Source: Kiritimatiellia bacterium (GTDB taxonomy: Bacteria; Verrucomicrobiota; Kiritimatiellia; CAIQIC01; JAGNIJ01). From it: a DNA stretch of 64,000 bases. The position numbers were made by a program, and so were the translations under genes. Positions 20,321 to 44,030 of this stretch are shown one piece after another. The notes beneath the pieces were generated by a model. It did not search any database and had not been told where the DNA came from. It saw only the letters and a list, made by a program, of their open reading frames with translations. The DNA lies in NCBI GenBank assembly GCA_018001225.1, contig JAGNIJ010000017.1, positions 10,688-74,687 of the forward strand. The letters are read 5' to 3'. Numbering within the stretch: position 1 is the stretch's first letter; each line of letters starts with the position of its first letter.

Positions 20321-20333
20321 GGGTGGGCAAGGC

Positions 20334-20645
20334 ATGTCAGACCAGGGTTGGAATGAACTGGTGAGCCGGATCGTGGGAGCGGTACACCCCTTGCAGATCA
20401 TTCTTTTCGGATCCTCCGCTCGGGAAGGCGGGGGCGTCAGGGGCGACGTGGATGTACTCGTGGTCATGCCCGATGGTACGCCACGGCGCGCGACAGCGCA
20501 GAAACTCCACCTGGAAATGTTCGGACTGCCCTTCGCCGTGGATATCCTCGTCGCGACACCGTCCGATCTGCAGAGGCATCGTACGAATATCGGGTTGATC
20601 TACAAAACCATCCTGGAAGAGGGGAAACAACTCTATGCCGCCTGA
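20334..20645 (+). CDS. Minimal nucleotidyltransferase (MNT/MntA-type antitoxin)
   Basis: The GSSAREGGGVRGDVDVLVV motif (G-S-x9-13-D-x-D) of the Pol-beta superfamily. 103 aa. Its stop overlaps the downstream HEPN start. Confidence 0.75.
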   Translation: MSDQGWNELVSRIVGAVHPLQIILFGSSAREGGGVRGDVDVLVVMPDGTPRRATAQKLHLEMFGLPFAVDILVATPSDLQRHRTNIGLIYKTILEEGKQLYAA

Positions 20646-20820
20646 TGTCCCCGTTCCGGGTTCCGCGGCAGACTGGCTTCGGCATGCGAAAGCGGACCTG
20701 GCCTTGGCCCGCGTTCCGCTTCCGGAGGAAGGGCTGTATCTTTCCCTGTGTTTTCATGCTCATCAAGCGGCTAAAAAGGCGATCAAGGCCGTACTGAATT
20801 TCTTCCCGAACACTGCCTGA
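20635..20820 (+). pseudogene. HEPN-domain toxin gene (COG2250-type), 3'-truncated
   Basis: Its ATG overlaps the MNT stop by 11 nt. The N-terminal helix-1/2 pattern is AADWLRHAKADLALARV...LSLCFHAHQAAKKAIKAVL. The ORF stops after 61 aa and the downstream R-x4-6-H catalytic motif is absent. A palindromic element begins about 38 nt later. Confidence 0.55.
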
Positions 20821-20857
20821 AACTTCAATGCCGGCTTGGTGATTATGAGGGGTGAGT

Positions 20858-20930
20858 GTCATCCCGAACGAAGTGAGGGATCTCCGACTTGTTGGGCAGC
20901 GCAGAGATCCCTCGCTGCGCTCGGGATGAC
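20858..20930. repeat. Imperfect palindromic MITE/REP-like element
   Basis: GTCATCCCGAACGAAGTGAGGGATCTC, 19 nt, GAGATCCCTCGCTGCGCTCGGGATGAC: 27-nt inverted arms at about 85% identity. Both-strand translations give the CHPERSEGS-type peptides that often appear as spurious hypothetical ORFs. Confidence 0.5.
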
Positions 20931-21071
20931 ATGCTCCACTTTCTATGTCCGGCAAGCACCGCACGGGCCTTGCGCAGTCATCAAAGTTTCATCCGTGAGC
21001 GTTCCGGCCGCCGCCGGAGGCTTTGCTGATCTGAGACACCATCCGTGAAAAGTGCGTGTCACATATTTGTT

Positions 21072-21169
21072 TTCAACGTCCAACGCCCAACGTCCAACAC
21101 CCAACTTCCAAGGCGTGGAACGGCTTCCATTGGACGTTGGAAGTTGGATGTTGGTTGTTGGACGTTGAG
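21072..21169. repeat. Long hairpin element made of inverted arrays of heptamers: (CCAACNN)5, 18-nt spacer, (NNGTTGG)5
   Basis: Left arm TTCAACGTCCAACGCCCAACGTCCAACACCCAACTTCCAA, right arm TTGGACGTTGGAAGTTGGATGTTGGTTGTTGGACGTTGAG. A related copy occurs at 36569-36638. Confidence 0.55.
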
Positions 21170-21212
21170 GTCTCATTGCTGTTTCCATCCGGCCCCTGGG
21201 GCCGGCGGCCCA

Positions 21213-21247
21213 ACCGAACACTGAACACTGAACACTGAACACTGAAC
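21213..21247 (+). repeat. Tandem heptanucleotide repeat (CYGAACA)x5
   Basis: CCGAACA CTGAACA CTGAACA CTGAACA CTGAACA read directly. It lies in the 5' leader/coding start of the YkgJ-like gene. Confidence 0.6.
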
Positions 21248-21582
21248 ACCCCCAATCCTTCTCCTGCCTCCACTGCGGCGCCTGTTGCCGCTGGCCGGGG
21301 CACGTGCTGCTGACGGACGCGGATGTGGCGCAACTGGCGTCCCATCTGGGCATTCCCGAGCGGGATTTCATCGACCGGCACACCGTGCTGGCCTCCAACC
21401 GGGGCCAGTTGAGCCTGGCCGAGACGCCGGAGGGCGCCTGCGTGTTCCTGGAAAACGACGCCTGCCGGGTGTACGTTTCCCGCCCGGCGCAGTGCCGGGA
21501 ATTCCCGGCCGGCTGGTCCGTTCCGGGGTGCCCGGCGGTCGGGGGCCGGGCCGCCGGAGCCCTGGCGCGGCGCCCGGTGTAA
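21232..21582 (+). pseudogene. YkgJ-family (CxxCxxCC zinc/iron-chelating domain) gene lacking an in-frame canonical start in its present repeat configuration
   Basis: The in-frame peptide TLNTEHPQSFSCLHCGACCRWPGHVLLTDADVAQLASHLGIPERDF...CREF carries the CxxCxxCC hallmark upstream of the first possible start (GTG 21304). The frame opens immediately after a TGA inside the heptamer tract. Confidence 0.45.
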
Positions 21583-21732
21583 CATCTTTTCAACTTCTCA
21601 CTTTCACACATTTCGTCCCCGACACATTCCCTCTTAAATTGTTTGTCAGGGCGGGTCGTATTGGGTAATCTCATCATTTAAGAAGCGGGGAAAACGCGGC
21701 CGAACGGTACAGGCCGCCAACAGTCTGATGAG

Positions 21733-22500
21733 ATGGGCTTCGTAAGACACAGCAATCTCAAGGTGTGTTTTCTTGCGGTCCTGGCCGGGCTGCTGGTCGG
21801 AGGGCCCTCCATCGCGGCCGACGATCCCGCCGCGTTGCGGGCCGAACTCGATGCCGTGCGCCGCGAACTGGCCGGGCTGCAGGCCTCCGATCCCCTGGGC
21901 GGCTCCGGCCGCTGGTCGCAGCGGGACCGCGCGGAATACGACGTCCCCGAGGTTGCCGAGCTCCGGGGGCAGGCCAAGGCCCTCGAAAAAAGCCTCGTGG
22001 AAAAACGCGCCGCCCTGCGCGACCGCTTCGCCCTGCTGTTCCCCGAACTCCGCGACCTGTTCCGCGCCCGCGACGCGGCCTACGCGAAGCTCGCGGAGGG
22101 CGGCCGGATGGCCGCCCTGGTGGACAACGAGATTCGCCTGGCCGAGCGCGCGGACCCGCCCGACGCCGCGAAGTTGGAAGGCCTGCGCGCCGATCGCGAG
22201 CGCATGCGGTCGGAACTGGAGACCGCCCGGATAGCGGCGGAAAAGTCCCAGGCGGAATTCCTCGCGCTCCAGAAGGAGCGGGCGGCCGGCGACCCCGAAT
22301 GCGCCGCGCTGCAGGCGGAGATCGCGGACCTCGAGACCCGTTTCGCGCAGGCCCGGCAGCGGATGAACGAGAAGCTGGACGAACTCCCCGCGTCGCAGGC
22401 CGCCGAGGCGGAGCGGAGGGCGCAGTCGGCGCGGGTGGTGGAACTCAAGCAGCGCGAGCAGGCGCTGGTTGGGCAGTTGTCGCTTTTGGAAACGCAGTAA
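21733..22500 (+). CDS. Secreted coiled-coil protein (hypothetical)
   Basis: Signal peptide LKVCFLAVLAGLLVGGPSIAADD. The rest is heptad-like Ala/Glu/Arg/Leu-rich sequence. It ends 52 nt before the giant surface-protein gene. Confidence 0.5.
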   Translation: MGFVRHSNLKVCFLAVLAGLLVGGPSIAADDPAALRAELDAVRRELAGLQASDPLGGSGRWSQRDRAEYDVPEVAELRGQAKALEKSLVEKRAALRDRFALLFPELRDLFRARDAAYAKLAEGGRMAALVDNEIRLAERADPPDAAKLEGLRADRERMRSELETARIAAEKSQAEFLALQKERAAGDPECAALQAEIADLETRFAQARQRMNEKLDELPASQAAEAERRAQSARVVELKQREQALVGQLSLLETQ

Positions 22501-22551
22501 ACACGGCGTGAACAATGGATCGCCCGGGGGCTCGGCGCCCGGGCGCCGGAG

Positions 22552-25500
22552 ATGACCGTTATGAAAAAACAAGAAGCTCGTCGTTCCCGGGATCGCTGGT
22601 TGACGTGGCGCCTGGTGCCGGTCGTGCTGTTCTGCGCCGCCGGCCTGGTGACGGCCCTCGAATCCCCCGGCCCGCGCCCGGAACAGGTCTTCTCCATCCT
22701 GCAGCTCCGGGTCGAGGACGGCCGGGTGTGGTTGTCCGCCGAAAATACCCCGCTGCGCGACATCCTCCGGGAACTTGGCGCGCAGAGCGGCGTCCGCCTC
22801 CAGGTCGACCCGGCGCTTGACGCGCCCGTCACCCTCGCGCTCGAAGGCGTCAGTCTCGAGGACGCGCTGAAGGCGCTCTCCGCCAGCCGCGCGCTCGTGT
22901 ACGAGAAGGACGGGGACGGCTACCGCCTCGCGGCCGCGACCGTGACGGCGCAGGAAGAGGCGGCCCCCGCGGCGCCGGCCGCGGAGGCGGAGAAACCCGC
23001 GCGGGCCGCGCTGCCCCGGGGCATGCTGACCAACGCCGGCCGGTCGCCGGATGAACTCATGCGGCGCGGTGCCGCGGCGATCCTGCTCCAGAACGCCCTG
23101 ATCGACACCGAGGCGGCCGCGGCCGGCCGCGGGCTCGAGGTGCCGGAGGCGTTCCGCGCCCCGGCGGACACGGAATACCACATCGTGCAGTTCGACGGGC
23201 CCGCTTCCGACGCGCAGCGCGAGGCCCTCGAAGAAGCCGGCGCGCTGGTCAGCCACTACGTCCCGCGCTCGGCCTTCGCGGTCCACGCGGACGCGGCGGC
23301 GATGGCCGCGGTGAAGGCCCTGCCCGGCGTGACGCACGTCGAGCCGTACCATCCCTATTTCAAGATGAGCGGCGAGGTGCTGGATTATCTCGTTCACGGC
23401 GAGGAGCAGGCCCTGGCGAACCCGAAGTTCCACGAGGGCGAGTTCAACGTCGTGCTCTTCCGGGGCGTGGAGGACGCGAAGGCGATCGAGGCCGCCGGCC
23501 TGGAGATCGTGCGCGAGCAGTCGGCGGGCGGGCGCGAGGTCCTGACCGTGCGCGGCGACGCGGACAAGCTGACCGACCTGGTGCAGCTCGACGCCGTGCA
23601 GTGGGTCGAGGCCTCCCCGGTGCGCAAGCCGATGAACGACCTGGGCACCGAGCGGATCCGCGCCAAGTCCCTCAAGGCCCTGCACCCGACGCTGACGGGC
23701 GCGGGCGTGATCGTCGGGATCACGGACTCCGGCATCGACTTCATCAACCCCGGCTTCGCCGTGGACCCCACGCAGGCCACGAGCACGAACCTGAACACCC
23801 GCATCGTGTACTACGACCAGCGGCCGAGCGTCACGTCGGACGGCTTCCCGGGCGACAACAACGGCCACGGCACGCACGTCGCGGGCAGCATCCTGGGCAA
23901 CGGGGCGCTCTCCGAGACCGTGCTGAAGGCGGCGGGCTCCGGGACGGGCGAGGGACCTTACAGCACGAATTACTTCGCCGGCGCCGCGCCCGGCGCGCGC
24001 GTGGTGATGATCGAGGACTTCAACAGCTTCACGGACGAGGAGCAGGCCGAGATTTCCTACAACAAGGGCGCCCGGCTCTCGAACAACAGTTGGGGCAACT
24101 CAGTCAACTACTATGGATCAATGTCTATGCTGTGGGACGAACTGGTCCGGGACGCCGTGCCCGGCACGGCGGGCAACCAGGAGTACATCGTCTTTTTCGC
24201 GGCGGGCAACGACGGCGGGGGCAATAACGATGGAACGGGCGGCGAGGCGGAGACCATCGGCCAACCCGGCAACGCCAAGAACGTCATCACCGTCGGCGCC
24301 GTGGAGCAGAAGCGCCTAGCTAACAACCTGCTTAACTACGAGTCCGACAAGGAAACGGATACGGATTGGCAGGTTGCTGGTTTTAGTTCTCGGGGACCGG
24401 TTCTTTATGCAGAAGGATTCGATCGTCGTATCAAGCCTGACATCATGGCGCCCGGTGCCTACGTGCTATCCGTGCAGTCTCGCGAAACGATGCCGGACTT
24501 CATTGAACTAGAAGGCACGGTCCACCGCGACTACCGCTATGGCAACATTGACTCGGGAACGAACTTCGCGTTCTTCAGCGGCACCTCGATGGCTACGCCT
24601 CTGACCGCGGGCGGTGGTGCGCTGATGTTTGAGTACTACACGAATACCTTCGGCAAGGCCCCGAGCCCCGCGATGATGAAGGCCATGATGGTCGGCGGAG
24701 CGCGGATGCTGAATTCGATCGTTTACAAGAACGCGTACGACGTCGGCCTTGTCGAACTCGTGGACCAGGGGTGGGGCCTGCTCGACGTCGTGCGTTCGGT
24801 GAACGGGCCACGCATTCAACCCACAGACGAGATCATCCTGCTGGATCAGGACCAGACGACGCCGCTGTCGGCCGGCCAGTTCTTCACCCGCCAGGTCAAG
24901 ATCAACGCGGGCGAGGGCGGCCTGAAGGTGGCCCTGGCGTGGACCGACCCGGCGGGTACGCCGGGCCTTGGCGTACAACTGGTTAACGACTTGGATCTCT
25001 ATGTCCAGGCCCCGGGCGGCGGCGGCTACATCGCAGGCAATTTCGAACTGGACGGCGCCCATTCGCGGCGGTTTGAGGCCATCGATCCGGAAATGGGTGA
25101 CGAGTACAACAATGTCGAAACGATTGTGATCCCCACGCCGACGCCGGGCACCTATACCATTCAGGTTTATGGGTATGCCGTGCCGCAAGGTCCGCAGGAC
25201 TTTGCGCTGTCCATCATGAAGGGTATCGGCATGGAAAGCCGTAATCCCGGCGACAGTCCCGACGTGGCCATGAGCGGGGATGATCGCCCCGTGATTGCCT
25301 ATTCCACGACGGCGAATGGATTGCGCCAGGTGTATACGAAGCGGTGGATCGGAGAGGTGGGAGATATTTCGGATATTGGCAAGTGGAAGCACATGGATGG
25401 CCAATGGTTCGAGGTAGGGTCTTCGGCCAGCGGCGGCGGCGTCAGCAAGACGTTGGCGGCTTCCGAGCAGCCTTCCGTCGCGGCTTCGGGAACCAACATC

Positions 25501-28500
25501 TTTGTCGCCTGGGCGGAACAGGCCTTGGCACCTTTCAACAAGAGTCGTATTTACTTCCGCCAGTACAATGGCAGTTCGTGGATTGAACTGGGCAGTTCCG
25601 CCAACGACTTCGGAGTGAGCGGGGAGAGCGAATTTGACGCCACGAAGCCGGTCGTGGCGGTGATGTCTGACGGGCGGCCGGTGGTGGCGTGGAAGCGGAC
25701 GCATTCGGTCAGCACGGGCCAGCGCGTGTTCGTCGCGAAGTGGAGCGGGACGAACTGGATCGGCCTGGCGTATTCGCACACCAACGGCATCGCCTACGAC
25801 GGCAACTACCGGCTGGTGGACGACCTGGACATGGTCGTCGACAGTTCCGGGATGCCGGTGGTCTCGTGGGCGGACACGACGCTGCAGCGGATCGTCACGC
25901 GGCGGTGGAACGGCTCGTCGTGGTCGACGCTGCCGAACCAGGGCAACACCTTCGTGCAGTACCCGAAGCTGGCCGCCGGGACCGGCGGCTCGATCTACCT
26001 GACCTGGGTCGAGACCTACGGGTCGGACCCGCTGCCGTACCTCTCGCAGCAGGTGTACGCGTCCCGCTACTCGGGCGGGAGCTGGAGCGCGATCAGCGGC
26101 TCGACGACCTTCCCCGGCATCAGCGCGGCGACCAGCGGCATCCCGCGGCGGCCGTCCATCGCGGTCTCGCCCGCGGGCACGGTGTTCGTCACGTGGGCGG
26201 GCGGGACGAACCTGCTGAATTCGGTCTATGTCAAGCGGGCGCAGGGCGGGGGCTGGGTCGGCGTCGCGGGCGCCGGCGAGCCGCCGGGCGTGGCGCTGGT
26301 CGGCGGCGTGTCCTTCACGCCGGTGTCGGTCACCGACAGCAAGGGCGTGCCGATCGTCGTGTACGAGAACACGGGCAGCGGCGAGAGCGAAGTGCTGGGC
26401 TTCAAGCTCGTCGCGGACACCGCGCCGCCGATCTTCGGCGGCCTGCTGACCGCCGAGGGGGGGACCAACAACAACGTGGCCCTCGGCTGGAACGCCGGGG
26501 CGGACAATTTCTCCACCAACATCTACTACCACATCTACCGCGGCACGAACGCGTGGGACTGCTGGGAAACGCCCATGTGCCCGGCGGGCGAGGTGTTCGG
26601 CAACCTGATCGCCGTGGTCACCAATACCACCGCGTTCACCGTGACGAATCTCACCAACTACAAGACCTACTGCTTCGGCGTCCGCGCCATGGACGACAGC
26701 GGGTTCATGGACAGCAACACCGTCACCCGGTCCGCCGGCCCGACGCAGCCCGGCGTGGACTGCCTGGACCTCGACTCCGACAGCGACGGCATGCCGGACC
26801 ACTGGGAGATCCTGCACGGGTTCGACCCGTTCAACCCGGCGGACGCGGCCCTCGACGCGGACGGCGACGGCCTGACCAACCTCGAGGAGTACGTCCTCGG
26901 CACGCACCCGCGGCACGTGGACAGCGACGGGGACGGCCTGACGGACGGCGCCGAGGTGCTGACGCACCAGACCGACCCGACGAAGGCGGACAGCGACGGG
27001 GACGGCCTGGACGACGGGTTCGAACTCGCGATCGGCACTGATCCGCGCAGCGCGGACTCCAACGCCAACGGCGTGAGCGACGGCGACATCTTCCAACTCG
27101 GGTACGACACGCCGGCCGACGCGTGGACCAACCTGAACATCTACCTCGCGGAGACGTTCGAGACCTCCTCGCGCACGAACTGGGCGCACAGCGCGCCGAA
27201 CGCCTACCTGCCGCTCGACCTCTGGCACCTGTCCACGGCCGAGCCCGGCACGAACGCGGGCATCCGGTCGATGGACGACCACACGCCGTCGAACTCGTAC
27301 CGCCTGGCGTACGACCCGTCCGCGACGAACCCGGCGGCGACCTACAGCCGGGGCCAGCCGCTGATCTGCGCCCTGGACAGCCCGCGCGTGGACGCCCTGG
27401 GGACGGGCAACCTGTACGTGGCGTGGCGGGAGTTCTACGACACCGAGCCGATCAAGGACTTCATCACCGTCCAGGCGCGCGGCGGCGGCAACACGAACTG
27501 GACCGTGGTGGCCGGGGCGCGTTCCGGCGAGAGCGGCGGGTGGTTCCGCCGCGTGGCGAATCTCGGGGCCTTCGCGGGCCAGAGCAACGTCCAGGTCCGC
27601 TTCCTGTTCACGGCCCAGAACGCGATCAACAACGACTTCAACGGCTGGTACGTGGACGACGTGATGATCTACCAGGGCGCGACGATCTTCGGCTGGGTGC
27701 GCGACATCAACGGCCGGCCGATCGTCGGCGCGACCGTCCGCGCGCTGGGGCGCGGCGGCGTGACGAACGTCGTGCAGGGCCACCCGACCATCCCGGCGCC
27801 GAAGATCTTCGGCGAGGCGGCGACGGCGGAGGACGGCAGCTACATGATCGCCGGGATCCCGCTGGGCCGCTACTACCTCAAGGCGGATGAGCCCAGCCAC
27901 CGGGCCGAGTTCTGGAACGGCGCCCTGTTCACCGCGCCGTACAGCTTCGGCAGCGGGTTGAATCCGGGCGTGTACAACCTCGACCAGGTCGGCGCGGGCG
28001 GGTACATCGACGTGCGCACGAACGGCGCGGTCCAGGAGGCCCACTTCGAGCTCGAGCGCGGGGAAAACCAGAGCTTCCTGGGCGTTTCGCACACGGCCTC
28101 GGCCGCCGGGCTGCCGGTGATCGTGGACTACACGGCCGCGACGCTGTGGAACGGCTCCACCTCGGCCCCGGCCCTGGTGGCCTACAGCACGACGAACGTC
28201 TTCCCGCGGCCGAAGCTCTATCCCGACTGGCTGACCAACGCCGTGAAGGCCGAGCTGTTCGCCGCGGCGTCGCCGGGCGAGCACCGCGTCGGCATGGGCG
28301 CGGGCCTGTGGCGGATGGCGCAGCCCGCCGTCGAGACGCGCGAGGGCGAGGTGGTCCAGGTGGACCTGCGGACCAACGCCGCGCAGGGCTATCTCTACGT
28401 GGCCTCGCTGGACGGCATGAGCTATCCCGTCTGGCTGAACGGCCTCAACACCGGCAGCAACACGCCGGCGCGCCTGTATGTCCAGGCCGGGACGCACCTG

Positions 28501-31500
28501 GTGCAACTCGCGCCGACCAACGGCTACAAGGGCTTCGCGCCGCAACTCATCACCGCGCCGATCGGCAACCGGCTGAACGTCAGCTTCACGGAGGAGGAGC
28601 TGACCGACACGCCCGGCGCCCTGATGGTGGACGCCCGCGACGCGTTCGGCAACGTGGTCAGCGGCGCGCAGGTCGTGGTCAACGGGCGGGTGGCGCAGAT
28701 CGGGGACGTGGCGGCCGGCGGGACCAACGTCACGCCGACGGTCCTGACCTCCCTGCGGCCGGGCCCGCACCGCGTGTCCGTGCTCATGGACGGGTTCCGG
28801 CGCTCCGCGGCGCGCGTCATCGACCTGGAGGCCGGCTATACCAACTACACGCAGTTCGCGCTGTACCAGGCGGACCAGGATGCCGACAACGTGGGCGACT
28901 ATTCCGAAATCCAGGGGTACACGAACATCTTCCTCTTCACCGGCGAGGACGATCCGGACGGCGACACGCTGATCAACCGGCTCGAGTACGACCTGTTCCG
29001 GCTGTTCGGCATCCGGCTGAACATCTTCAACCGGGACACCGACGCGGACGCCATGCCCGACGGCGAGGAAGTGGGGTACAAGGGCTGGGCCTCGTCCAAC
29101 GGGTTCCTGACCTACGCCTGGTCCGTGCTCTACACCAATGCCGTGCAGAACACGGAAACCGTGGAGGCCCTCTTCGTGGGCCGGTACCTGGACGGCATCA
29201 GCGCCTTCGGGTCCGGGACCAACGCGGTCAGCATCGAGGGCGACCGGTTCGAGCCGAAGACCATCGCGCATACCGCGCCGCTCGTGCCGACCAAGACCAA
29301 CGCGGTCACCGTGTTCGGCGGCATCCCGACCGCCGGCGTCCACCGCGCCGTGATCGAGGGGCATCCCTCCGGCACGCCGATCTTCGCGGACACCCGGCCG
29401 GACGTGCAGGATACCAGCGGCGACGGCATGTGGGACGGGTTCAAGTGGAAGTACCGCTGGATGACCAACGCCGTGGGCGAGGTCACCCGCATCCTCGACC
29501 CGATCGAGTACGGCGGCAACGACGACGACCCCGACTGGGACGGGCTGAACAACTACCTCGAGTTTCTCGGGCCCGACGCCCTGGCCAACACCAACGATTG
29601 GACCAACCCGGGCCGCAGCGACACGGACAACGACGGGTTGCCGGACGGCTGGGAGTACTTCTACGGGCTCGACCCGAACGACCCGTCTGACGCCTGGCTC
29701 GACCCGGACGACGACGACCTGCCGAACTACATCGAGTACCTCGTCGGCAGCAATCCGTTCCTGGCGGACACCGACGCGGACGGCTTGAACGACGGCAAGG
29801 AGGTCTTCGTCTACGGGTCCGACCCGACGAACCCGGACACGGATTACGACAGCCTGCTTGACGGCCTGGAGGCCCAGCTCGGCACCAGTCCCACCGCCTG
29901 GGACACGGACGGCGACGGCATGCCCGATGGATTCGAAGTCCTGGATGCCCTGGGCAACCTGCGCGATCCGAGCCAGAGGCTGAACCCGCTCGACCCGACG
30001 GATGGCGATGACGATTACGACCACGACGGCCTGACGAACTACGAGGAGTACCTCGTCCGCGATGGCCTCATCGGCAACATGCCGGACGACGCCCTGTGGG
30101 ACTACTGGTCCGATCCGTTCAATCCCGACAGCGACGGCGACGGCATGCCGGACGGCTGGGAGGTCTGGTACGGCTTGCACCCGATGGACCCGGTCGGAAC
30201 CCGCGTGGAAGGCGAGAGCGTGACGCGCTACTCGGTCCTGGCCACCGGCGGGGATCCCGACAGCGACGGTCTGTGGAACCTGCGCGAGTACAACATCCGG
30301 TTCCGTTTCGACGCCGGCGCCGACCCGTACCAGGTCCATGGCGTGAGCACCGATCCGCACAACCCGGACACCGACAACGACGGACTGGGCGACGGCGAGG
30401 AAGACCGCGCCCTGCGCGCGCACCCGCTGAAGCAGGACACCGACGGCGACTGGCTGCTCGACGGCGTGGCCGTCACCACCAAGTGGGGCGAGGTGGAGTC
30501 CACACTGCGCAAGAGCGAGTTCGCCGTGATCCCGTTCGCGGGGACGTGGGCGGGCGCGCTGCAGGATTGCGCGACGAACCCGCTGGCGGTCCGGCACCCG
30601 ATCTACACGAACATCGTCGGGCACCTGGCCGTGCCCAATGACCTGCTGGGCGAGGAGAATGCCGCGATCATGGCGCTGTTGGGTGGCGGCGAGGTGGACA
30701 TCGCCTTGGGCGGCCTGGTGGCGGACGACACGCTGGGGACGATCAGCTGGGTTACCGGTGAGGCGTGGCTGTTCCCGAACTACGGCCTGGGCGAGCCCCT
30801 GACCAAGCCGGGCGTGCTGGGCATGAATGCCGCCGACGGTAAATGGAAGGGGCGAGGCGAGGCGGACCTGTTCGACCATTACGCGGTCGAATGGGAGCTG
30901 GTGCCCCAGGTGACCAACCACTACGACGAGGCGTTGAACGACCTCTGGCAATTGCTGTGGCCCGGCACCTCGGACTTCCCGTACTGGAAGAAGATCAATG
31001 TCTCCGAGGATACCTACATCCCGCCGGCGCGGTGGGGAGCGGCGATGACGTACATCCCGGTGTACGAGACCAAGAATCCCAAGAACGATACCGGCACCAT
31101 CCTGATGGATAACCGCAAGCTCGTAGTCATCGGCGGCCGTGACGGCGTCGCCAAGCATCGCGACGTATGGGAATTCCTTGTCCGGTCCAACATGTGGGTG
31201 CGGAGCCCCGCGCCGCTGAATGCCTCGCCGATCCTCCAGGTGGACGGCATGTCCGAACTCTGTGCCGTGCCGATCTTCGAGACCAAGAACACCAAGCCGA
31301 AGACCTGCCCCTGTACCGACATGCCGTACGATTGCGACGGGGAGGGCTTCGGCCTGCCGAAGAACCGCCCGTGGGACGGGCACCGGAGTTTCGACTGGAC
31401 GTTCATCTTCGGCGGCTGGGACGACAAGAACCAGTACAAGTCCACGCCCCGGTTCTACAAATCCGGCGACAGCATGGACCCCGTGGTGGACACTGTCGCG

Positions 31501-34308
31501 CCGGACGTTTCGGTGGCCCAGGTCCAGACGCCGTCCCAGATCGACGAGTTCAACGTGGTCCTGACCTGGGAGCGCGAGGCGCGCGAGTTCGAGCGCGTCC
31601 TGCCGGTGGGCTACCTGGTGGACGACCAGAGCGGCACGCCCGACGCGGACAAGTCCATCATCTATGACGGGTACAGCGCCATCCACTTCTCCGACACGGC
31701 CCTGACGCCGAATTGCGACCAGATCCTCTTCGCCGAACTGGAGTTCGTGGTCAGCAAGAGCCCGGCGGTGGACCTTCCCTTGACGGTCATCGGCGAGTTT
31801 CTGATCTCGGAAGGATTCTCGCCCGACGACTACAACGGCGACAACGGCGAGAACTGGCCCGAGAAGCGCATCACGGTGGGCGATTGGTTCAATACCACGC
31901 CGACGGCCTTTACCGTGTATACCACCAATGCGCCGGGAACCACGAACCGGGTGGACGTGACGGTTCAGGTCCAGGAGCTGATCTCGGCCGGCGGCTGGAC
32001 CGCCGAGGCCTTCGGGTTTGTGCTGGCGGGCAACGCGGACTACGCGGAGTTCAGCAAGAGCAAGACCAAGCTGACCGTGCATTACCGGCCGTCCTACAAG
32101 ATCAACGCGTACTGGAAGCTGCCCACCACCGTCACGTACATCGGGTGCGGCGAGAAGGCGGACAACCGGAAGTCCGCGGCGATGGCCTACGACTTCGTGC
32201 GCAAGCGCGCCGTCATGTTCGGCGGCATCGACGGCAACCGGGTGCGTGGTGACACGCACGAGGCGCAGATCGGCGGCGGCGCCGGCAGCGTGACGTGGCG
32301 TCAGCAGACGTGCGCCGAGAACCCGCCCGCGCGCTGGGGCCACTCCATGGTTTACGACGCCAAGAACGAGCGCGTGGTGATGTTCGGCGGGTTCGACGCG
32401 AACCATCGGCCGCTGAACGACCTCTGGCTTTACTACGCGTCCGACGAGCAGGTCGTCACGACGACCAACGAGCAAGGCGAGGTGACCGAGACCGCCACGA
32501 ACACCATCCCGGCCGAGTGGGTGCAGGTCACCAGCTTCACCTCCAGCGACCGCCCACAGCCGCGCGCCGGCGCGTGCATGATCTACTGGGGCGACTGGGA
32601 CTACGACCGCGGGCAGGGCGACGCCTACAAGGCCTCCTCCAACAAACGAAAGATCGTCCTTTTCGGCGGCACGGACGGGAAGACCTTCTTCAACGATACC
32701 TGGGTCTACGACGGGAACCGCTGGACGCTCTGCAATCCCGTCGGCGAGCTGTCCGCGGCGCCGCCGCCCCGCGCGTTCGCCTCGATGGCGTTCGCCCAGA
32801 ACGCCCGCAAGCTGCCGGACCGCGCCGGGACGGCCAGCTTCCACGGGGGCCTTGGCGACGATAGCGAGGGAGAGGATGACGACGAGACGCCCACCAAGGC
32901 CGCGAAGATGTCGGCCTTCCTGTTCGGCGGCCGGACAGGCACGATCCCGACGGGCAAGGACACGGACATGGACCTCGTGGACGACGGCATCGAGTTCGCC
33001 CTGGGCGGTCCGACCGCCGGGCGCGACCCGCGGGTGAACAAGCTGGTCTCGCCGACGAACCAGCTCGAGACCATACCCTATGCCCTGCAGCGGTTTGGCC
33101 CGGTCCCGTTGAGCATGCTCACGCCACGCGCGGCGATCGCGGACATGGAGTCCCTGCGCCATGACGAGGGCTTGTATGCCGCCTCGCGCGGTTACCCGTG
33201 GGAGTCCTGGTCGCACCCGGACACCATCATATTCTACGAGACCAAGTTGGGCTCGGGCGTCGAGACACGCATTCCCGAGTTCACCACCCAGTGGTACAGC
33301 CGGCACGGCATCGGGGATCCCTTCGATGCCCGGAACAAGTGGGAACTCGGCGTGCCGCGCCAGGACCTGGCCGGCGTGAAGGCCGCGCCACGCTATGCCT
33401 ATAGCGGGCGCTGGGCGTTCGGCACCACGCTGTCCGGCGCGTACGTCAACGACGCGGTGATGGAACTGTATTCGCCGATCTTCAGCCTGACGATCCCGCC
33501 GTCGGAGCTGACCTCGACGGACACGAACAACATGAACAGTTTCCACCTGGTCTTCCACGAGTGGCTGGACCTGGCGGACGCGAACGACCGGGTCAAGGTC
33601 GAGCTCATCCGGCCCGGCACGCCGGCGGACATCGCCAACCGGGTCTCGGCGACCAACAAGCCGCCGATCAGCGTGGTGCCCGAGCGCAACTTCGCGTACA
33701 ACACGACGGGCGAGTGGCGGCGCGTGGTGGCTCCGCTCGACATCGCGGCCAACGAGGCGAACGTCTACCTGCGGTTCACGCTGGTGTCCGATGCCGGCGG
33801 GGTGGCGGGCGGCTGGTACATCGACGACGTGGCCATCGCCCAGGGCGGCCAGATCCAGGGCACGTACAGCAACCACCCGGGCTTCGACGTGGAATTGCTG
33901 GGCGCCAACGACATCGGCGCGGCGCTGGCGACCACGGAGACGGACGCCAACAGCCTGTTCCAGTTCGGGTTCCTGCCCCAGGGCCAGTACTTCATCTACA
34001 GCAACGGGGAGACCGAGGGCCCGATCGACGTCGGGGCGGGCGGCTGGTCGCCGACCGAGCACCTGACCAACGGCGTCCCCGTGCCGTTCGACCTGGACGG
34101 CGTGGCCGTCGTGCCGGGCCGCAGCCTGTCGTGGGAGGCGGACATCGGCGCATCCTACACGATCCAGTACGCCGACGAGATGGTCAACAACCCGCCGTGG
34201 GCGGATCTGGCGACGGGGGTCGTCGCGGGGAGCGACCCGATGACGTACACCGACGTCAGCGCCCCGCCGGCGAACGGCCGCCGGTTCTACCGGGTGTGGA
34301 AGGAGTAG
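22552..34308 (+). CDS. Giant (3918 aa) membrane-anchored multidomain surface protein. Domain order: STN-like domain, I9-like propeptide plus subtilisin (peptidase S8), repeat region, thrombospondin-type-3 calcium-binding repeats, lectin/ConA-like and Kelch-like modules.
   Basis: N-terminal TM WRLVPVVLFCAAGLV. STN-like LRDILRELGAQSGVRLQVDPALDAPVTLALEGVSLEDALKAL. S8 triad motifs GITDSGID, HGTHVAGSI and GTSMATPLTAGG. Dozens of DxDxDGxxDxxE repeats, for example DSDSDGMPDHWE, DADGDGLTNLEEY and DSDGDGLTDGAE. Kelch-like GxxW runs in the last 1100 aa. Ends with RRFYRVWKE. Confidence 0.85.
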   Translation: MTVMKKQEARRSRDRWLTWRLVPVVLFCAAGLVTALESPGPRPEQVFSILQLRVEDGRVWLSAENTPLRDILRELGAQSGVRLQVDPALDAPVTLALEGVSLEDALKALSASRALVYEKDGDGYRLAAATVTAQEEAAPAAPAAEAEKPARAALPRGMLTNAGRSPDELMRRGAAAILLQNALIDTEAAAAGRGLEVPEAFRAPADTEYHIVQFDGPASDAQREALEEAGALVSHYVPRSAFAVHADAAAMAAVKALPGVTHVEPYHPYFKMSGEVLDYLVHGEEQALANPKFHEGEFNVVLFRGVEDAKAIEAAGLEIVREQSAGGREVLTVRGDADKLTDLVQLDAVQWVEASPVRKPMNDLGTERIRAKSLKALHPTLTGAGVIVGITDSGIDFINPGFAVDPTQATSTNLNTRIVYYDQRPSVTSDGFPGDNNGHGTHVAGSILGNGALSETVLKAAGSGTGEGPYSTNYFAGAAPGARVVMIEDFNSFTDEEQAEISYNKGARLSNNSWGNSVNYYGSMSMLWDELVRDAVPGTAGNQEYIVFFAAGNDGGGNNDGTGGEAETIGQPGNAKNVITVGAVEQKRLANNLLNYESDKETDTDWQVAGFSSRGPVLYAEGFDRRIKPDIMAPGAYVLSVQSRETMPDFIELEGTVHRDYRYGNIDSGTNFAFFSGTSMATPLTAGGGALMFEYYTNTFGKAPSPAMMKAMMVGGARMLNSIVYKNAYDVGLVELVDQGWGLLDVVRSVNGPRIQPTDEIILLDQDQTTPLSAGQFFTRQVKINAGEGGLKVALAWTDPAGTPGLGVQLVNDLDLYVQAPGGGGYIAGNFELDGAHSRRFEAIDPEMGDEYNNVETIVIPTPTPGTYTIQVYGYAVPQGPQDFALSIMKGIGMESRNPGDSPDVAMSGDDRPVIAYSTTANGLRQVYTKRWIGEVGDISDIGKWKHMDGQWFEVGSSASGGGVSKTLAASEQPSVAASGTNIFVAWAEQALAPFNKSRIYFRQYNGSSWIELGSSANDFGVSGESEFDATKPVVAVMSDGRPVVAWKRTHSVSTGQRVFVAKWSGTNWIGLAYSHTNGIAYDGNYRLVDDLDMVVDSSGMPVVSWADTTLQRIVTRRWNGSSWSTLPNQGNTFVQYPKLAAGTGGSIYLTWVETYGSDPLPYLSQQVYASRYSGGSWSAISGSTTFPGISAATSGIPRRPSIAVSPAGTVFVTWAGGTNLLNSVYVKRAQGGGWVGVAGAGEPPGVALVGGVSFTPVSVTDSKGVPIVVYENTGSGESEVLGFKLVADTAPPIFGGLLTAEGGTNNNVALGWNAGADNFSTNIYYHIYRGTNAWDCWETPMCPAGEVFGNLIAVVTNTTAFTVTNLTNYKTYCFGVRAMDDSGFMDSNTVTRSAGPTQPGVDCLDLDSDSDGMPDHWEILHGFDPFNPADAALDADGDGLTNLEEYVLGTHPRHVDSDGDGLTDGAEVLTHQTDPTKADSDGDGLDDGFELAIGTDPRSADSNANGVSDGDIFQLGYDTPADAWTNLNIYLAETFETSSRTNWAHSAPNAYLPLDLWHLSTAEPGTNAGIRSMDDHTPSNSYRLAYDPSATNPAATYSRGQPLICALDSPRVDALGTGNLYVAWREFYDTEPIKDFITVQARGGGNTNWTVVAGARSGESGGWFRRVANLGAFAGQSNVQVRFLFTAQNAINNDFNGWYVDDVMIYQGATIFGWVRDINGRPIVGATVRALGRGGVTNVVQGHPTIPAPKIFGEAATAEDGSYMIAGIPLGRYYLKADEPSHRAEFWNGALFTAPYSFGSGLNPGVYNLDQVGAGGYIDVRTNGAVQEAHFELERGENQSFLGVSHTASAAGLPVIVDYTAATLWNGSTSAPALVAYSTTNVFPRPKLYPDWLTNAVKAELFAAASPGEHRVGMGAGLWRMAQPAVETREGEVVQVDLRTNAAQGYLYVASLDGMSYPVWLNGLNTGSNTPARLYVQAGTHLVQLAPTNGYKGFAPQLITAPIGNRLNVSFTEEELTDTPGALMVDARDAFGNVVSGAQVVVNGRVAQIGDVAAGGTNVTPTVLTSLRPGPHRVSVLMDGFRRSAARVIDLEAGYTNYTQFALYQADQDADNVGDYSEIQGYTNIFLFTGEDDPDGDTLINRLEYDLFRLFGIRLNIFNRDTDADAMPDGEEVGYKGWASSNGFLTYAWSVLYTNAVQNTETVEALFVGRYLDGISAFGSGTNAVSIEGDRFEPKTIAHTAPLVPTKTNAVTVFGGIPTAGVHRAVIEGHPSGTPIFADTRPDVQDTSGDGMWDGFKWKYRWMTNAVGEVTRILDPIEYGGNDDDPDWDGLNNYLEFLGPDALANTNDWTNPGRSDTDNDGLPDGWEYFYGLDPNDPSDAWLDPDDDDLPNYIEYLVGSNPFLADTDADGLNDGKEVFVYGSDPTNPDTDYDSLLDGLEAQLGTSPTAWDTDGDGMPDGFEVLDALGNLRDPSQRLNPLDPTDGDDDYDHDGLTNYEEYLVRDGLIGNMPDDALWDYWSDPFNPDSDGDGMPDGWEVWYGLHPMDPVGTRVEGESVTRYSVLATGGDPDSDGLWNLREYNIRFRFDAGADPYQVHGVSTDPHNPDTDNDGLGDGEEDRALRAHPLKQDTDGDWLLDGVAVTTKWGEVESTLRKSEFAVIPFAGTWAGALQDCATNPLAVRHPIYTNIVGHLAVPNDLLGEENAAIMALLGGGEVDIALGGLVADDTLGTISWVTGEAWLFPNYGLGEPLTKPGVLGMNAADGKWKGRGEADLFDHYAVEWELVPQVTNHYDEALNDLWQLLWPGTSDFPYWKKINVSEDTYIPPARWGAAMTYIPVYETKNPKNDTGTILMDNRKLVVIGGRDGVAKHRDVWEFLVRSNMWVRSPAPLNASPILQVDGMSELCAVPIFETKNTKPKTCPCTDMPYDCDGEGFGLPKNRPWDGHRSFDWTFIFGGWDDKNQYKSTPRFYKSGDSMDPVVDTVAPDVSVAQVQTPSQIDEFNVVLTWEREAREFERVLPVGYLVDDQSGTPDADKSIIYDGYSAIHFSDTALTPNCDQILFAELEFVVSKSPAVDLPLTVIGEFLISEGFSPDDYNGDNGENWPEKRITVGDWFNTTPTAFTVYTTNAPGTTNRVDVTVQVQELISAGGWTAEAFGFVLAGNADYAEFSKSKTKLTVHYRPSYKINAYWKLPTTVTYIGCGEKADNRKSAAMAYDFVRKRAVMFGGIDGNRVRGDTHEAQIGGGAGSVTWRQQTCAENPPARWGHSMVYDAKNERVVMFGGFDANHRPLNDLWLYYASDEQVVTTTNEQGEVTETATNTIPAEWVQVTSFTSSDRPQPRAGACMIYWGDWDYDRGQGDAYKASSNKRKIVLFGGTDGKTFFNDTWVYDGNRWTLCNPVGELSAAPPPRAFASMAFAQNARKLPDRAGTASFHGGLGDDSEGEDDDETPTKAAKMSAFLFGGRTGTIPTGKDTDMDLVDDGIEFALGGPTAGRDPRVNKLVSPTNQLETIPYALQRFGPVPLSMLTPRAAIADMESLRHDEGLYAASRGYPWESWSHPDTIIFYETKLGSGVETRIPEFTTQWYSRHGIGDPFDARNKWELGVPRQDLAGVKAAPRYAYSGRWAFGTTLSGAYVNDAVMELYSPIFSLTIPPSELTSTDTNNMNSFHLVFHEWLDLADANDRVKVELIRPGTPADIANRVSATNKPPISVVPERNFAYNTTGEWRRVVAPLDIAANEANVYLRFTLVSDAGGVAGGWYIDDVAIAQGGQIQGTYSNHPGFDVELLGANDIGAALATTETDANSLFQFGFLPQGQYFIYSNGETEGPIDVGAGGWSPTEHLTNGVPVPFDLDGVAVVPGRSLSWEADIGASYTIQYADEMVNNPPWADLATGVVAGSDPMTYTDVSAPPANGRRFYRVWKE

Positions 34309-34312
34309 GGGT

Positions 34313-34406
34313 TCTGGAGGGCGAGCCTCCGGCGAGCCGCGTTTCGGGCTTCAAGCGCGGCTCGCGGGGACGCTCGGGGACGGCTCGCGGGGACGCTCGC
34401 CCTCCA
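34313..34406 (+). terminator. Large stem-loop structure after the giant gene: a 13-nt inverted repeat enclosing two 19-nt direct repeats
   Basis: CTGGAGGGCGAGC (34313-34325) pairs with GCTCGCCCTCCAG (34394-34406). Inside are CGGCTCGCGGGGACGCTCG twice (34357-34375 and 34380-34398) and a hairpin AGCCGCG...CGCGGCT. An AT-richer stretch follows. Its function (terminator or attenuator) is uncertain. Confidence 0.35.
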
Positions 34407-34504
34407 GGAGCGGGGGCAGGGTAAAATAAAGCATGACAATTTGGAGCGAATGGCGTAAGAAGCAGCAAAGAATCATCGCATGTGACTCGGGCAAGGAGAA
34501 TAAG

Positions 34505-35491
34505 ATGAAAAAAATGTGGATCTGGAGTGCCGTCGCTGGTTTGGCCGCGGTCTCGGCTATTCTCCTCGGCTGCGAATGGTCGACCAGCACGGATTCGTTC
34601 AACACCTCGAAGGGCGCCGGGATCTCCATTAATTTCTCCGGCGTGTATTACGGCAATCTTTCGGGCGGGCGGGCCGTGGCCGGCACGTCCGGCAGCACGA
34701 TCACCCGGCTGGTGGTCCAGCACGCGGGCAATGCCGTCAAGGTGCTCGACAACAACGGTTCGGAATACTCCGGCACGATCGGCTCGCCCGGCGTGATCGC
34801 GCCGCCTTCGTCGAGCGGCGTGTACCCGGCGGGGGCCCTCCTGGCGCAGGCGCAGATCAATTTCTCCGGCCATGACAACGTGGCGGCCCGGAACGTCAAC
34901 TTCGCCGGCATCATCCACGGCGTGGCCGTGGACGATGTCCAGGGCCAGACGGAAACCGAGACCACGACCATCACCCAGAGCGATGTGCAGCGGGACAGCG
35001 CGACCAGTTCGGTTTCGTACACGGAGAATTTCTCCTGGACCACCAACTCGACCACGATCACCACGGACGGCACCAATATCACGACCAAGCTGACCATCGT
35101 GGCCTACGACGAGTTCGGCAACGAGGTCTATCGCTCGGAGCAGACGTACACGGTCACGCCCTCCGGGAGCAGCAACCTCGTGAGCCAGAGCATCACCGAC
35201 AACCGCTCCAACGGCCGCACGCGCAGCCGCGACCAGGTGCAGGATTACAATCAGAAGAACGAGACGGTCGAGTACACCAAGTACTACATCACCGAGGCCA
35301 ATACCCAGTACCGCATGCAGGGGACCTGGGTGGAGGAGGCGGGCGTATCTTCCGGTGTGGACGCACTTTCCGCTGGCACGGCAGGGGTGATCACCGAGGT
35401 GACCCCGAGCGGCGCGCCGGGCGGCACGGAGGGCGGCGGCACGGAGGGAACCACGGATAGCACGGCCACGTCGACTTCGACCTCCCTGTAG
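34505..35491 (+). CDS. Thr/Ser/Asn-rich lipoprotein (hypothetical)
   Basis: AAGGAGA RBS. Lipobox AILLGCEW after MKKMWIWSAVAGLAAVS. Low-complexity T/S/N-rich beta-rich sequence with no recognisable enzymatic motif. Confidence 0.55.
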   Translation: MKKMWIWSAVAGLAAVSAILLGCEWSTSTDSFNTSKGAGISINFSGVYYGNLSGGRAVAGTSGSTITRLVVQHAGNAVKVLDNNGSEYSGTIGSPGVIAPPSSSGVYPAGALLAQAQINFSGHDNVAARNVNFAGIIHGVAVDDVQGQTETETTTITQSDVQRDSATSSVSYTENFSWTTNSTTITTDGTNITTKLTIVAYDEFGNEVYRSEQTYTVTPSGSSNLVSQSITDNRSNGRTRSRDQVQDYNQKNETVEYTKYYITEANTQYRMQGTWVEEAGVSSGVDALSAGTAGVITEVTPSGAPGGTEGGGTEGTTDSTATSTSTSL

Positions 35492-35512
35492 CGGCCGGTC
35501 ACGTTAAGCGCG

Positions 35513-35548
35513 CGCCCCTCGCCTCCCGGCGGGGGGCGTTCTGTTTTG
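35513..35548 (+). terminator. Rho-independent terminator
   Basis: CGCCCCTCGCC-TCCC-GGCGGGGGGCG (11-bp stem with one G.U) followed by TTCTGTTTTGG, 22 nt after the lipoprotein stop. Confidence 0.55.
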
Positions 35549-37997: not shown

Positions 37998-38474
37998 ATG
38001 CGTATCACCGAGGTGGTGTTGGTGGCGGCGCTGGGCGGGGGGGCCTATTATCTTTGGCAAGAGCACAAGGCGGCCGTCACCCCTGCGGGGTCCCAGCCCC
38101 AACCGGAGTCCCCATCCAGGCCTTCTTCTTCACCCGGGGCCTCCGCGCCGGCCAAGTCTTCGGTGGCATCGAGCCCGTCGGCTCCGGCAAGGCTGACCTG
38201 CTATGCCTGCAAGGGAGAAGGCCGATTGATGTTGCGGAAGGAAGGCCGGCGAAGGGGGGCGGATAGTTCCTACATGTGTCCCGTATGCCGCGGGAGCGGG
38301 TTCCGTTCGATCGAATCATCCGGCCCTGTTTGCAAGGACTGCGGCGGGATGGGATTTTGCCTTTATCACCCGGACTATGGGACCGTTACGGTCGAGGAGA
38401 TGGGCCTCTATGCCAGGGACACCGGCAGTGCAATCCGTTGGAGCGCGCGCCCTTGCGGGCGGTGTAGGAAGTAA
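37998..38474 (+). CDS. Membrane-anchored protein with DnaJ-type CxxCxGxG zinc-finger repeats (hypothetical)
   Basis: N-terminal TM VVLVAALGGGAYYLW, a Ser/Pro-rich linker, then CYACKGEG, CPVCRGSG and CKDCGGMG repeats. Confidence 0.5.
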   Translation: MRITEVVLVAALGGGAYYLWQEHKAAVTPAGSQPQPESPSRPSSSPGASAPAKSSVASSPSAPARLTCYACKGEGRLMLRKEGRRRGADSSYMCPVCRGSGFRSIESSGPVCKDCGGMGFCLYHPDYGTVTVEEMGLYARDTGSAIRWSARPCGRCRK

Positions 38475-43945: not shown

Positions 43946-44030
43946 TTTTTTTAGCGCGGGCAGCGCCCGGCATTTGGAAACAGTACCATTGAAAAGCGAT
44001 AATCGGAAACGACGCAAGGAGGAGTACTCC

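Follow-up and report, generated by a model that had tools for sequence, protein, structure and literature searches.

What would a docking module of the STN type be doing at the head of a giant protease precursor? The question is raised by a gene at 22552–34308 (forward strand) that encodes a protein of 3918 amino acids (aa), found in a 64,000-nt stretch of contig JAGNIJ010000017.1 (positions 10,688–74,687, assembly GCA_018001225.1) from a Kiritimatiellia bacterium. We call this whole stretch the window, and all positions below are counted from its first letter. In secretins, TonB-dependent transducers and FecR-type regulators, N0/STN domains mediate docking between proteins. The Kiritimatiellia are abundant, mostly uncultured polymer degraders, and to our knowledge almost nothing is known about how they build and use their cell surface. 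We propose, with a probability of roughly 0.55, that the giant gene encodes an active, KP-43-like S8 protease fused to some 3,000 residues of binding and spacer modules, which would be an exported protease-adhesin made as a zymogen and encoded in a conserved three-gene cassette. By sequence, this cassette specifies a secreted coiled-coil protein, the giant protease (the middle gene) and a lipoprotein, and it is carried by a clade of uncultured Kiritimatiellia.

A conserved, uninterrupted giant gene

The initial annotation of the window had reported a 3918-aa open reading frame (ORF) ending in RRFYRVWKE, and we verified that the frame is uninterrupted over 22552–34308 when counted from the start at 22552. 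A GGAG lies immediately 5′ of this first ATG and 9 nt 5′ of a second ATG at 22561. Since the spacing is better there, the true start may be the second ATG, three codons later. The GC content of third codon positions is a uniform 0.92, the same as in the other confident genes of the window (68% GC).

With residues 1–900 of the giant protein as query, a search across 185,579 species genomes yielded 246 relatives. The first 34 loci (hereafter the first tier; loci carry L numbers) are metagenome-assembled genomes (MAGs) labelled Kiritimatiellia, Lentisphaerae, Verrucomicrobia or PVC (Planctomycetes–Verrucomicrobia–Chlamydiae), with 41–80% identity over the best segment. By tblastn, loci with enough sequence carry collinear ORFs of 3,527–4,245 aa that span nearly the whole query. 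The ORFs of the 18 aligned MAGs are intact, collinear and 3,527–4,198 aa long, while further homologues, up to 4,245 aa, are intact or truncated by the contig. In a MAFFT alignment of 19 sequences, identity per 50-residue block is 27–73% over the entire length. Because collinear homologues occur in about 20 independent MAG assemblies, the ORF is, on this comparative evidence, real and not an assembly chimera, a possibility that the initial annotation had itself raised. Within the ORF, no internal DNA repeat exceeds ~80% identity and there is no tandem repeat of note. The units of the thrombospondin type 3 (TSP3) repeats described below are only 60–80% identical at the DNA level, and repeat collapse is therefore unlikely.

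The second tier of relatives (L035–L080) comprises Verrucomicrobiota giants that have in common with the window protein a head made of pro-region, S8 domain and β-barrel, at 30–33% identity over residues ~113–890, and whose tails are composed of PPC, Laminin_G_3, P_proprotein and Big_9 modules. A common head with differing adhesive tails indicates, at the level of sequence, a modular protease-adhesin design in these Verrucomicrobiota.

Two compositional features of the giant gene may be recorded here. GC content dips to 0.61 at 24001–26000 (residues ~480–1150), against ~0.70 on both sides, in a stretch that covers the C-terminal part of the S8 domain and the propeller-like region. Opposite the gene runs a 3184-aa antisense ORF (24508–34062, reverse strand), the usual shadow of a high-GC gene, without supporting evidence. 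In two relatives the gene is called in pieces, as several ORFs in L084 (1–9914) and as a small gene followed by an ORF of 3184 aa in L082 (1–9915). Indels of the assembly are the probable cause of these split calls, not a true fission of the gene.

An S8 protease behind a putative double prodomain

Residues 383–718 match Peptidase S8 (PF00082) with 140.6 bits against a cut-off of 21.8 (E 8e-41). When the PDB is searched with phmmer, residues 432–889 align to the KP-43/SubHal subtilases (1wmd, 5fax), C-terminal barrel included (E ~1e-42), and Pfam adds a weak PPC-like barrel match at residues 802–874. The catalytic domain and the KP-43-type β-barrel, which extends to residue ~889, together occupy 23698–25218 (+). 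The triad D392 (TDSGID), H439 (HGTHVAG) and S678 (SGTSMATP), together with the oxyanion N512 (NNSWG), is invariant in 19 of 19 aligned sequences, and the enzyme is therefore predicted to be active.

The catalytic domain is preceded by a pro-region (23074–23616, +; residues ~175–355) composed of a conserved hairpin, AILLxNAxIDT, and two I9-like β-α-β modules. An AlphaFold2 (AF2) model of residues 1–370 shows the hairpin and both modules at a predicted local distance difference test (pLDDT) of 85–95, and Foldseek matches the modules to POIA1, the CspB prodomain, pro-subtilisin E and others with a probability of 1.0. The Pfam matches are sub-threshold (Fervidolysin_NPro-like, 16.7 bits against a cut-off of 21, E 0.0098; Inhibitor_I9, E 0.2). 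The I9-like propeptide and S8 domain that had been read from the letters alone thus stand, the former as a putative assignment by weak Pfam matches together with the predicted fold.

An STN/N0 domain at the N-terminus

The protein begins with a hydrophobic segment (22597–22671, +; residues ~16–40) that is either a signal peptide or a signal anchor. Its Kyte–Doolittle maximum is 1.79, and apart from it the cut-off is exceeded in just two windows, at residues 2705–2706. The hydropathy scan revealed no hydrophobic sorting helix at the C-terminus. The protein had initially been described as membrane-anchored. The single N-terminal hydrophobic segment was confirmed, but the anchor was not: the hydrophobic core is of ~16 residues and is followed by VTA|LE, resembling a cleavable Sec signal. 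The N-termini of most homologues likewise show the n-h-c pattern of signal peptides, and members without the N0 domain have longer, anchor-like segments.

As for the domain that follows (22681–22971, +; residues ~44–140), several lines of evidence identify it as STN, or secretin-type N0. Run alone, residues 44–140 score 25.1 bits against Pfam STN (cut-off 28.4) and also match FecR_C and DotD; in a longer context the STN score is 19.5 bits. Across the family, Pfam STN is matched by 19 of 26 members (best 2e-6) and FecR_C by 14 of 26, and a profile built from the 26 domains matches the N0 structures of PilQ, HofQ and GspD/XcpQ in the PDB at 1.5e-5 to 3e-3. The AF2 model of the domain has a β-β-α-β-α-β-β topology with a mean pLDDT of 71.5, a moderate value that stems from the alignment of only 7 sequences used for the prediction. 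The PDB structures matched by Foldseek are almost exclusively N0/STN domains (TMq 0.55–0.66, probability 0.9–1.0), among them the FecR-like anti-sigma factor 4m0n, PilQ (4av2/4ar0), XcpQ (5ngi), PupA/PupB, InvG and PupR. An exhaustive HMMER search of 1.84 billion representatives with the N0 profile gave 1,882 matches at E ≤ 1e-3. The best 150 are either single N-terminal matches in proteins of ~4,000 aa, i.e., the giant family, or proteins with 3–8 tandem matches. Ten of these multi-match proteins were scanned, and eight contain Secretin above the Pfam cut-off plus STN, GspD_N0 and Secretin_N; among those scanned, one has a truncated, sub-threshold Secretin match and two short ones have STN/N0 only. 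Profiles and predicted fold thus confirm residues 44–140 as an STN/N0 domain closest to the N0 modules of secretins, rather than the generic β-α-β fold that had been named as the alternative.

The domain is present in 28 first-tier loci and missing from five (L027, L028, L031, L033 and L034), and it is absent from all 46 second-tier Verrucomicrobiota giants. Pfam and NCBIfam detect no Secretin C-domain (PF00263) and no plug and barrel anywhere in the 3918 residues. Judged by its domain content, the giant protein merely borrows an N0 module and is neither a secretin nor a TonB-dependent transducer.

Predicted binding and spacer modules

The modules behind the protease were delimited by Pfam searches with the complete protein and with overlapping segments of it. 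Directly after the barrel comes a propeller-like region (25234–26436, +; residues ~895–1295) with ~6–7 repeats of ~55 aa. Its signatures, PxVAW ... [WY]xGxxW, are conserved in the family, and the spacing of the [WY]xGxxW motifs, 54–59 residues, is what would be expected of propeller blades. It is followed by a putative fn3-like domain (26446–26709, +; residues ~1299–1386; PF00041, E 0.0014, sub-threshold) and by TSP3 block 1 (26767–27090, +; residues ~1406–1513), which has four strict motifs, matches PF18884 and contains DNA repeat families D1–D4. A β-sandwich stalk (27352–28860, +; residues ~1601–2103) then carries InhA-like_MAM at residues ~1600–1706 (E 0.003), CarboxypepD_reg at 1711–1782 (31.2 bits against a cut-off of 32.3, E 5e-6) and PEGA at ~1960–2100 (33 bits against 20.8). 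MAM-like, CarboxypepD_reg and PEGA families are likewise found among the precomputed annotations of homologues. The β-rich repeats that had been proposed for this part therefore stand as far as CarboxypepD_reg, fn3 and MAM-like matches go. The WxxW character does not, the motif occurring only six times and showing no repeat signature.

TSP3 blocks 2 and 3 (28873–30480, +; residues ~2108–2643; ~12 strict motifs) are the best-conserved part of the C-terminal half. TSP3_bac (PF18884) scores 76.2 bits against a cut-off of 25 in six stretches, and calcium binding is predicted. Where more than 30 DxDxDGxxDxxE motifs had been claimed, we counted 16 strict DxDxD[G..]xx[DN]xx[EDW] motifs in three blocks, 15 copies of the corresponding DNA repeat family and 24 loose DxDxD positions, which puts the TSP3 repeats at about 16–20. 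Membership in the CglD/MtsD families was rejected, the matches to NF033765 (75.9 bits against 400) and NF047639 (60.8 against 800) being confined to the TSP3 repeats.

A Kelch-type β-propeller region (30481–32900, +; residues ~2644–3450) follows, broken by poorly conserved insertions at residues 2650–2800 and 2950–3200. Kelch PF24681 matches residues 3216–3417 with 81 bits (cut-off 50), Kelch_1, Kelch_3, Kelch_4 and Kelch_6 are also above their cut-offs, and a weaker Kelch match lies near residue 2850. The reading of residues ~2660–2790 as C-type-lectin-like was dropped as an unverified impression that no Pfam match supports. A second MAM-like domain of the ConA fold (33517–33852, +; residues ~3657–3767) matches PF20773 with 28.4 bits against 26.9 and, together with the Kelch region, bears out the ConA-like/Kelch C-terminal third of the initial annotation. 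The chain ends in an fn3-like domain (34081–34305, +; residues ~3844–3918, the RRFYRVWKE end), for which the only PDB profile matches are Fn3-like (E ~1e-3). Judged by Pfam, PDB profiles and structure models, the order of domains that had been read from the sequence was essentially right.

The terminal domain is not confined to the giant family. A fn3-like domain of ~70 residues with RxYRV placed 3–7 residues before the stop forms the extreme C-terminus of three PVC architectures, i.e., the first-tier giants, most second-tier S8 giants (some of which carry it in tandem) and a WD40-like/TSP3 protein. The domain may serve in sorting or anchoring. A word-index search with an alignment of this domain returned 14 short fragments only.

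A three-gene cassette

The gene directly upstream (21733–22500, +) encodes, as had been annotated, a secreted coiled-coil protein of 255 aa that carries a Sec signal peptide (...PSIA|ADD). The gap to the giant gene is 51 nt and contains no terminator. Homologues found by phmmer in 23 loci all lie on the same strand directly 5′ of the giant gene, all have signal peptides and have in common a C-terminal L-R-x-x-E-x-x-I/L motif. Pfam and NCBIfam return only coiled-coil noise for this protein, and an exact look-up found it in one 2-kb Logan contig only.

The downstream gene (34505–35491, +) encodes a 328-aa lipoprotein with an LLG-C lipobox, an acidic residue at position +2 and a Thr-rich linker. 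Its start is most likely 34505, with AAGGAG 7 nt upstream, not 34433. The protein matches NCBI KA248_07440 [Kiritimatiellae bacterium] at 100% identity, and its 47 database homologues all lack a name and a Pfam domain; the family has no match in Pfam, NCBIfam or the PDB. Its members share an L-x-G-C-[ED]-W box whose Cys is invariant, a conserved N-domain of ~125 residues, a variable Thr-rich linker and a conserved ITEANTQYRLEGTW motif. The lipoprotein gene adjoins the giant gene in at least 14 loci (at least 11 from the genome scan and three more contigs), and in L008 it has moved to the 5′ side of the coiled-coil gene, still within the cassette. Co-occurrence with the giant gene, which the initial annotation had suggested checking, is therefore positive for both neighbours. 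In the homologues P0042–P0088, the invariant Cys is followed by a conserved acidic residue (CE/CD). An acidic residue after the lipoprotein Cys is an inner-membrane retention signal in E. coli, a rule that may not hold in PVC bacteria.

Between the giant and lipoprotein genes lies a GC-rich, nearly perfect hairpin of 100 nt (34310–34410, +; −72.4 kcal/mol, z = −3.7), which contains 12-nt tandem repeats (GCTCGCGGGGAC x3.5). It has no T tract and is therefore not a canonical terminator; it could act in mRNA stabilisation or attenuation. The earlier description of a structured terminator followed by a Thr-rich lipoprotein accordingly stands for the lipoprotein and the hairpin, not for a terminator directly after the giant gene. 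A strong intrinsic terminator at 35512–35539 (+), with a 12-bp stem of 10 GC pairs and a T-rich tail, closes the cassette, and no terminator-like site beyond chance-level internal matches was found on the forward strand within 21733–35491.

Upstream of the coiled-coil gene, the window has a region of lower GC (0.62) without a confident gene (20300–21700). Just 5′ of the coiled-coil gene lies a 92-aa ORF (21304–21582) with a weak CxxCxxCC (PF03692) match, in a region conserved in L001, L004 and L019. In nine other loci, a protein of ~750–1000 aa with WD40-like repeats, a DUF11-like segment, Cys-containing TSP3 repeats and the terminal RxYRV domain is encoded just 5′ of the coiled-coil gene (L026:6966–9332, L011:7177–9414, L015:6282–8744, L021:6763–9060, L020:213–2795, L007:5809–8841, L014:6511–9216, L009:536–2989 and L006:6253–8740), and it has no counterpart there in the window.

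A proposed route from precursor to protease-adhesin

We propose that the precursor would cross the inner membrane via Sec, through its N-terminal signal peptide or signal anchor. The N0/STN domain and the two I9-like prodomains would then act as an extended pro-region that keeps the catalytic domain folded yet inhibited and positions the zymogen in the periplasm by a β-strand-augmentation contact. Beta-strand augmentation is the mode in which N0/STN domains bind their partners in secretins and TonB-dependent transducers. After autoprocessing by the protease, the long C-terminal part, made up of the propeller-like region, fn3, TSP3, MAM-like, CarboxypepD_reg and PEGA modules, the Kelch propeller and the terminal fn3-like domain, would serve as a stalk stiffened by Ca2+ and bearing heads that bind substrates or surfaces. 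The product would be a cell-envelope or extracellular protease-adhesin acting on proteinaceous or glycoprotein substrates, and the coiled-coil protein and the lipoprotein may help in its export, maturation or anchoring.

Several findings weigh against this proposal. The STN score of the window protein lies under the Pfam gathering score, and the N0 domain is dispensable for core function, since five family members do without it. The ~400 residues of the propeller-like region (895–1295) match nothing in the PDB when searched with a family profile, and only a weak BNR_4 in Pfam, and the insertions in the Kelch region likewise have no assigned family. Neither partner protein has a recognisable domain, and a helper role for the two is a guess. 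The downstream housekeeping genes (PNP, glgC, lpxL-like, rhomboid) are syntenic in L082–L084 too, so the linkage of the lipoprotein gene could in part be plain inherited gene order. Finally, bacterial TSP3 repeats are reported from OmpA-type proteins as well, where they lie in linkers within the periplasm (Dai et al. 2017, as cited in bioRxiv 10.1101/2023.11.21.568195), and a role inside the envelope is therefore possible. The surface display suggested in the initial annotation is thus at most a possibility.

Alternative explanations

One alternative gives the N0 domain a specific partner. It would dock on, or insert into, the N0 ring that a PilQ/Amuc_1098-type secretin forms in the periplasm, or dock on the PilP/GspC-like partner of that secretin, and the protease would be exported through the secretin or tethered at it, as cargo or accessory of the “Amuc_1100 pilus-like” machine of PVC bacteria. 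A candidate machine is at hand. An operon resembling Amuc_1101–1098, the “pilus-like” cluster of Akkermansia, lies 6 kb downstream of the giant gene (40234–47261) and encodes PilM_2 (40234–41934), an Amuc_1100-family protein (41931–42887; 101 bits, short of the cut-off of 180), an Amuc_1099-family protein with TSP3 repeats (42884–43945; 78 bits, above the cut-off of 50) and a 1124-aa TPR + N0 + Secretin protein (43887–47261). In three other loci a comparable operon, from PilM to the secretin, borders the giant gene: in L029 it lies directly upstream on the same strand, 286 nt away, in L030 it is divergent, and L022 is the third. The secretins encoded beside the giants in L030 and L022 are cross-matched by the N0 profile, whose nearest relatives outside the family are the N0 modules of secretins with 3–8 tandem copies. 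A secretin operon is thus found near 4 of 29 N0-bearing loci and near none of the 46 N0-less Verrucomicrobiota loci (one-sided Fisher p ~0.02, uncorrected for phylogeny), an association in gene context that is suggestive.

Other observations speak against such a coupling. The stored flanks of all remaining first-tier loci and of the whole second tier yielded no secretin, and in L082–L084 none lies within 10 kb downstream. Within the window, housekeeping genes on both strands separate the giant locus from the secretin operon, and the N0 of the window secretin is not detectably close to that of the giant (E 1.2), for which reason capture of the domain from the neighbouring secretin was also rejected. 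Moreover, a folded multi-domain protein of 420 kDa would be a difficult substrate for a machine of the type II secretion system kind, and family members without N0 exist. On balance, we regard secretin coupling as unlikely, and more doubtful still its specific form, in which the N0 at the mature N-terminus would be a docking tag for the N0 ring of the Amuc_1098–1101 secretin and the terminal RxYRV domain would mark large cargo proteins.

A second alternative is that the main task of the N-terminal S8 domain is to cleave the 3,000-residue tail behind it, releasing several separate proteins of the envelope or surface. The placement of S8 at the N-terminus of a very long multi-module chain, a design that recurs with different tails in Verrucomicrobiota, would fit a self-cleaving polyprotein. 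Self-cleavage has been proposed for S8- and C39-headed giant proteins of Omnitrophota, and the idea has been raised for giant PVC proteins (bioRxiv 10.1101/2023.11.21.568195). No conserved cleavage motif was seen between modules, though no search was aimed at such motifs. The modules themselves are typical parts of stalks and adhesins, not separate enzymes, and KP-43-type enzymes are, from general knowledge, broad-specificity degradative proteases. We consider this reading improbable and favour a protease that keeps its tail as stalk and binding heads.

A third alternative is cell-surface signalling of the kind known from TonB-dependent transducers, with the STN domain contacting either an anti-sigma factor of the FecR type or TonB/ExbBD. 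The FecR_C and STN matches, and the presence of the FecR-like anti-sigma factor, PupA/PupB and PupR among the top Foldseek structures, would be in keeping with this, as would a 502-aa MotA/ExbB-like protein with a long coiled-coil tail (15418–16926) and two ExbD-like proteins (18995–19681 and 19688–20320), all weak matches encoded 2–7 kb upstream of the giant gene. These genes are, however, syntenic only in the three closest loci (L001, L004 and L008), and functional coupling to them was rejected. No gene for an extracytoplasmic function (ECF) sigma factor or FecR is found among the annotated genes of the window, the giant protein lacks a plug or TonB-dependent barrel, and its N0 profile is nearest to the N0 domains of secretins, not to the STN domains of transducers. 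Signalling is largely refuted by this gene context and is in our view highly improbable. Hardly credible at all is an assembly artefact or pseudogene, a long ORF arising from collapsed repeats or chimeric joining: the source is a metagenome-assembled genome and the gene is fragmented in one other assembly (L084), but its length and domain order recur across independent assemblies, and low repeat identity, uniform codon composition and invariant catalytic residues all speak against it.

Other genes of the window

The cluster of MotA/ExbB- and ExbD-like genes upstream of the cassette also includes an NHL-repeat protein gene (16937–18964), again a weak match, with paralogues at 8573–10621 and 10622–12568. 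Between the cassette and the secretin operon lie genes for two DnaJ-type CXXCXGXG zinc-finger proteins (37998–38474 and 38496–39407), and homologues of the second are found 3–6 kb upstream of the giant gene in L005, L014, L017 and L021.

Comparison with known systems

The KP-43/SubHal subtilases (1wmd, 5fax) resemble the giant protein in catalytic domain and β-barrel, D/H/S triad and oxyanion Asn. Their mature form is of ~430 aa, whereas the giant adds N0 and a putative double prodomain before this unit and ~3,000 residues after it. From general knowledge, a functional analogy is with the cell-envelope proteinases (CEPs) of Gram-positive bacteria, such as lactocepin PrtP with its lipoprotein maturase PrtM and the C5a peptidase ScpA. 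Like them, the giant is a very large multi-domain S8 protease with a pre-pro region, a catalytic head, a fibronectin-type stalk or spacer and an adjoining lipoprotein gene, and by this analogy it may plausibly work as a CEP-like surface protease on a stalk. Unlike them, it has no detected PA-domain insertion and no LPXTG or other C-terminal anchor, it belongs to a diderm host, it is twice the size, and it carries TSP3, Kelch and N0 modules that CEPs lack. In contrast to PrtM, the neighbouring lipoprotein has no peptidyl-prolyl isomerase (rotamase) domain by Pfam or NCBIfam. Treponema dentilisin (PrtP with the lipoproteins PrcA/PrcB), another analogy from general knowledge, is likewise an S8 protease whose small operon also specifies accessory (lipo)proteins of the envelope, but the NCBIfam match is insignificant (E 0.062) and the partners are unrelated in sequence.

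The N0 domains of secretins (PilQ, HofQ, GspD/XcpQ, InvG), the STN domains of transducers and the C-terminal domains of FecR proteins are similar to residues 44–140 in profile and predicted fold. Unlike these proteins, the giant has no secretin C-domain, plug/barrel or anti-sigma domain, and its N0 is a single copy, N-terminal on a protease precursor. The Verrucomicrobiota giants of the second tier and the S8-headed giants of Omnitrophota (bioRxiv 10.1101/2023.11.21.568195) have the pro-S8-barrel head and the terminal RxYRV domain in common with it. Those of the second tier differ in having no N0, no TSP3/Kelch tail and no secretin found in their flanks.

Significance

Every recognisable module of the giant protein is of a known type. 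Since giant multi-domain proteins with an N-terminal S8 domain are common in PVC bacteria, the sole unusual element of the chain is its N0 domain. That an STN domain on a protease is unusual, as the initial annotation had remarked, agrees with the searchable literature on STN plus subtilisin and on Kiritimatiella giant proteins, in which we found neither this architecture nor any N0 on a protease precursor described. What distinguishes the system is this placement of N0, a three-gene cassette with two families lacking a known fold, and the recurrent terminal RxYRV domain.

The giant family, with its conserved ~12-kb gene and two conserved partners of unknown fold, is a well-defined target for metaproteomics and structural work. 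If it proves to involve neither a zymogen tether nor a link to a secretin, the giant would be another large modular secreted protease. Its single N0 domain on a protease precursor suggests either a novel type of tether for the zymogen or a connection to a secretin machine, for which the candidate is a cluster of the Amuc_1098–1101 type, whose function is unclear even in Akkermansia. Were N0 indeed a docking tag, the giant would be the first candidate cargo or accessory for an Amuc_1100-type system and would point to a new route by which diderm PVC bacteria export or tether giant proteins.

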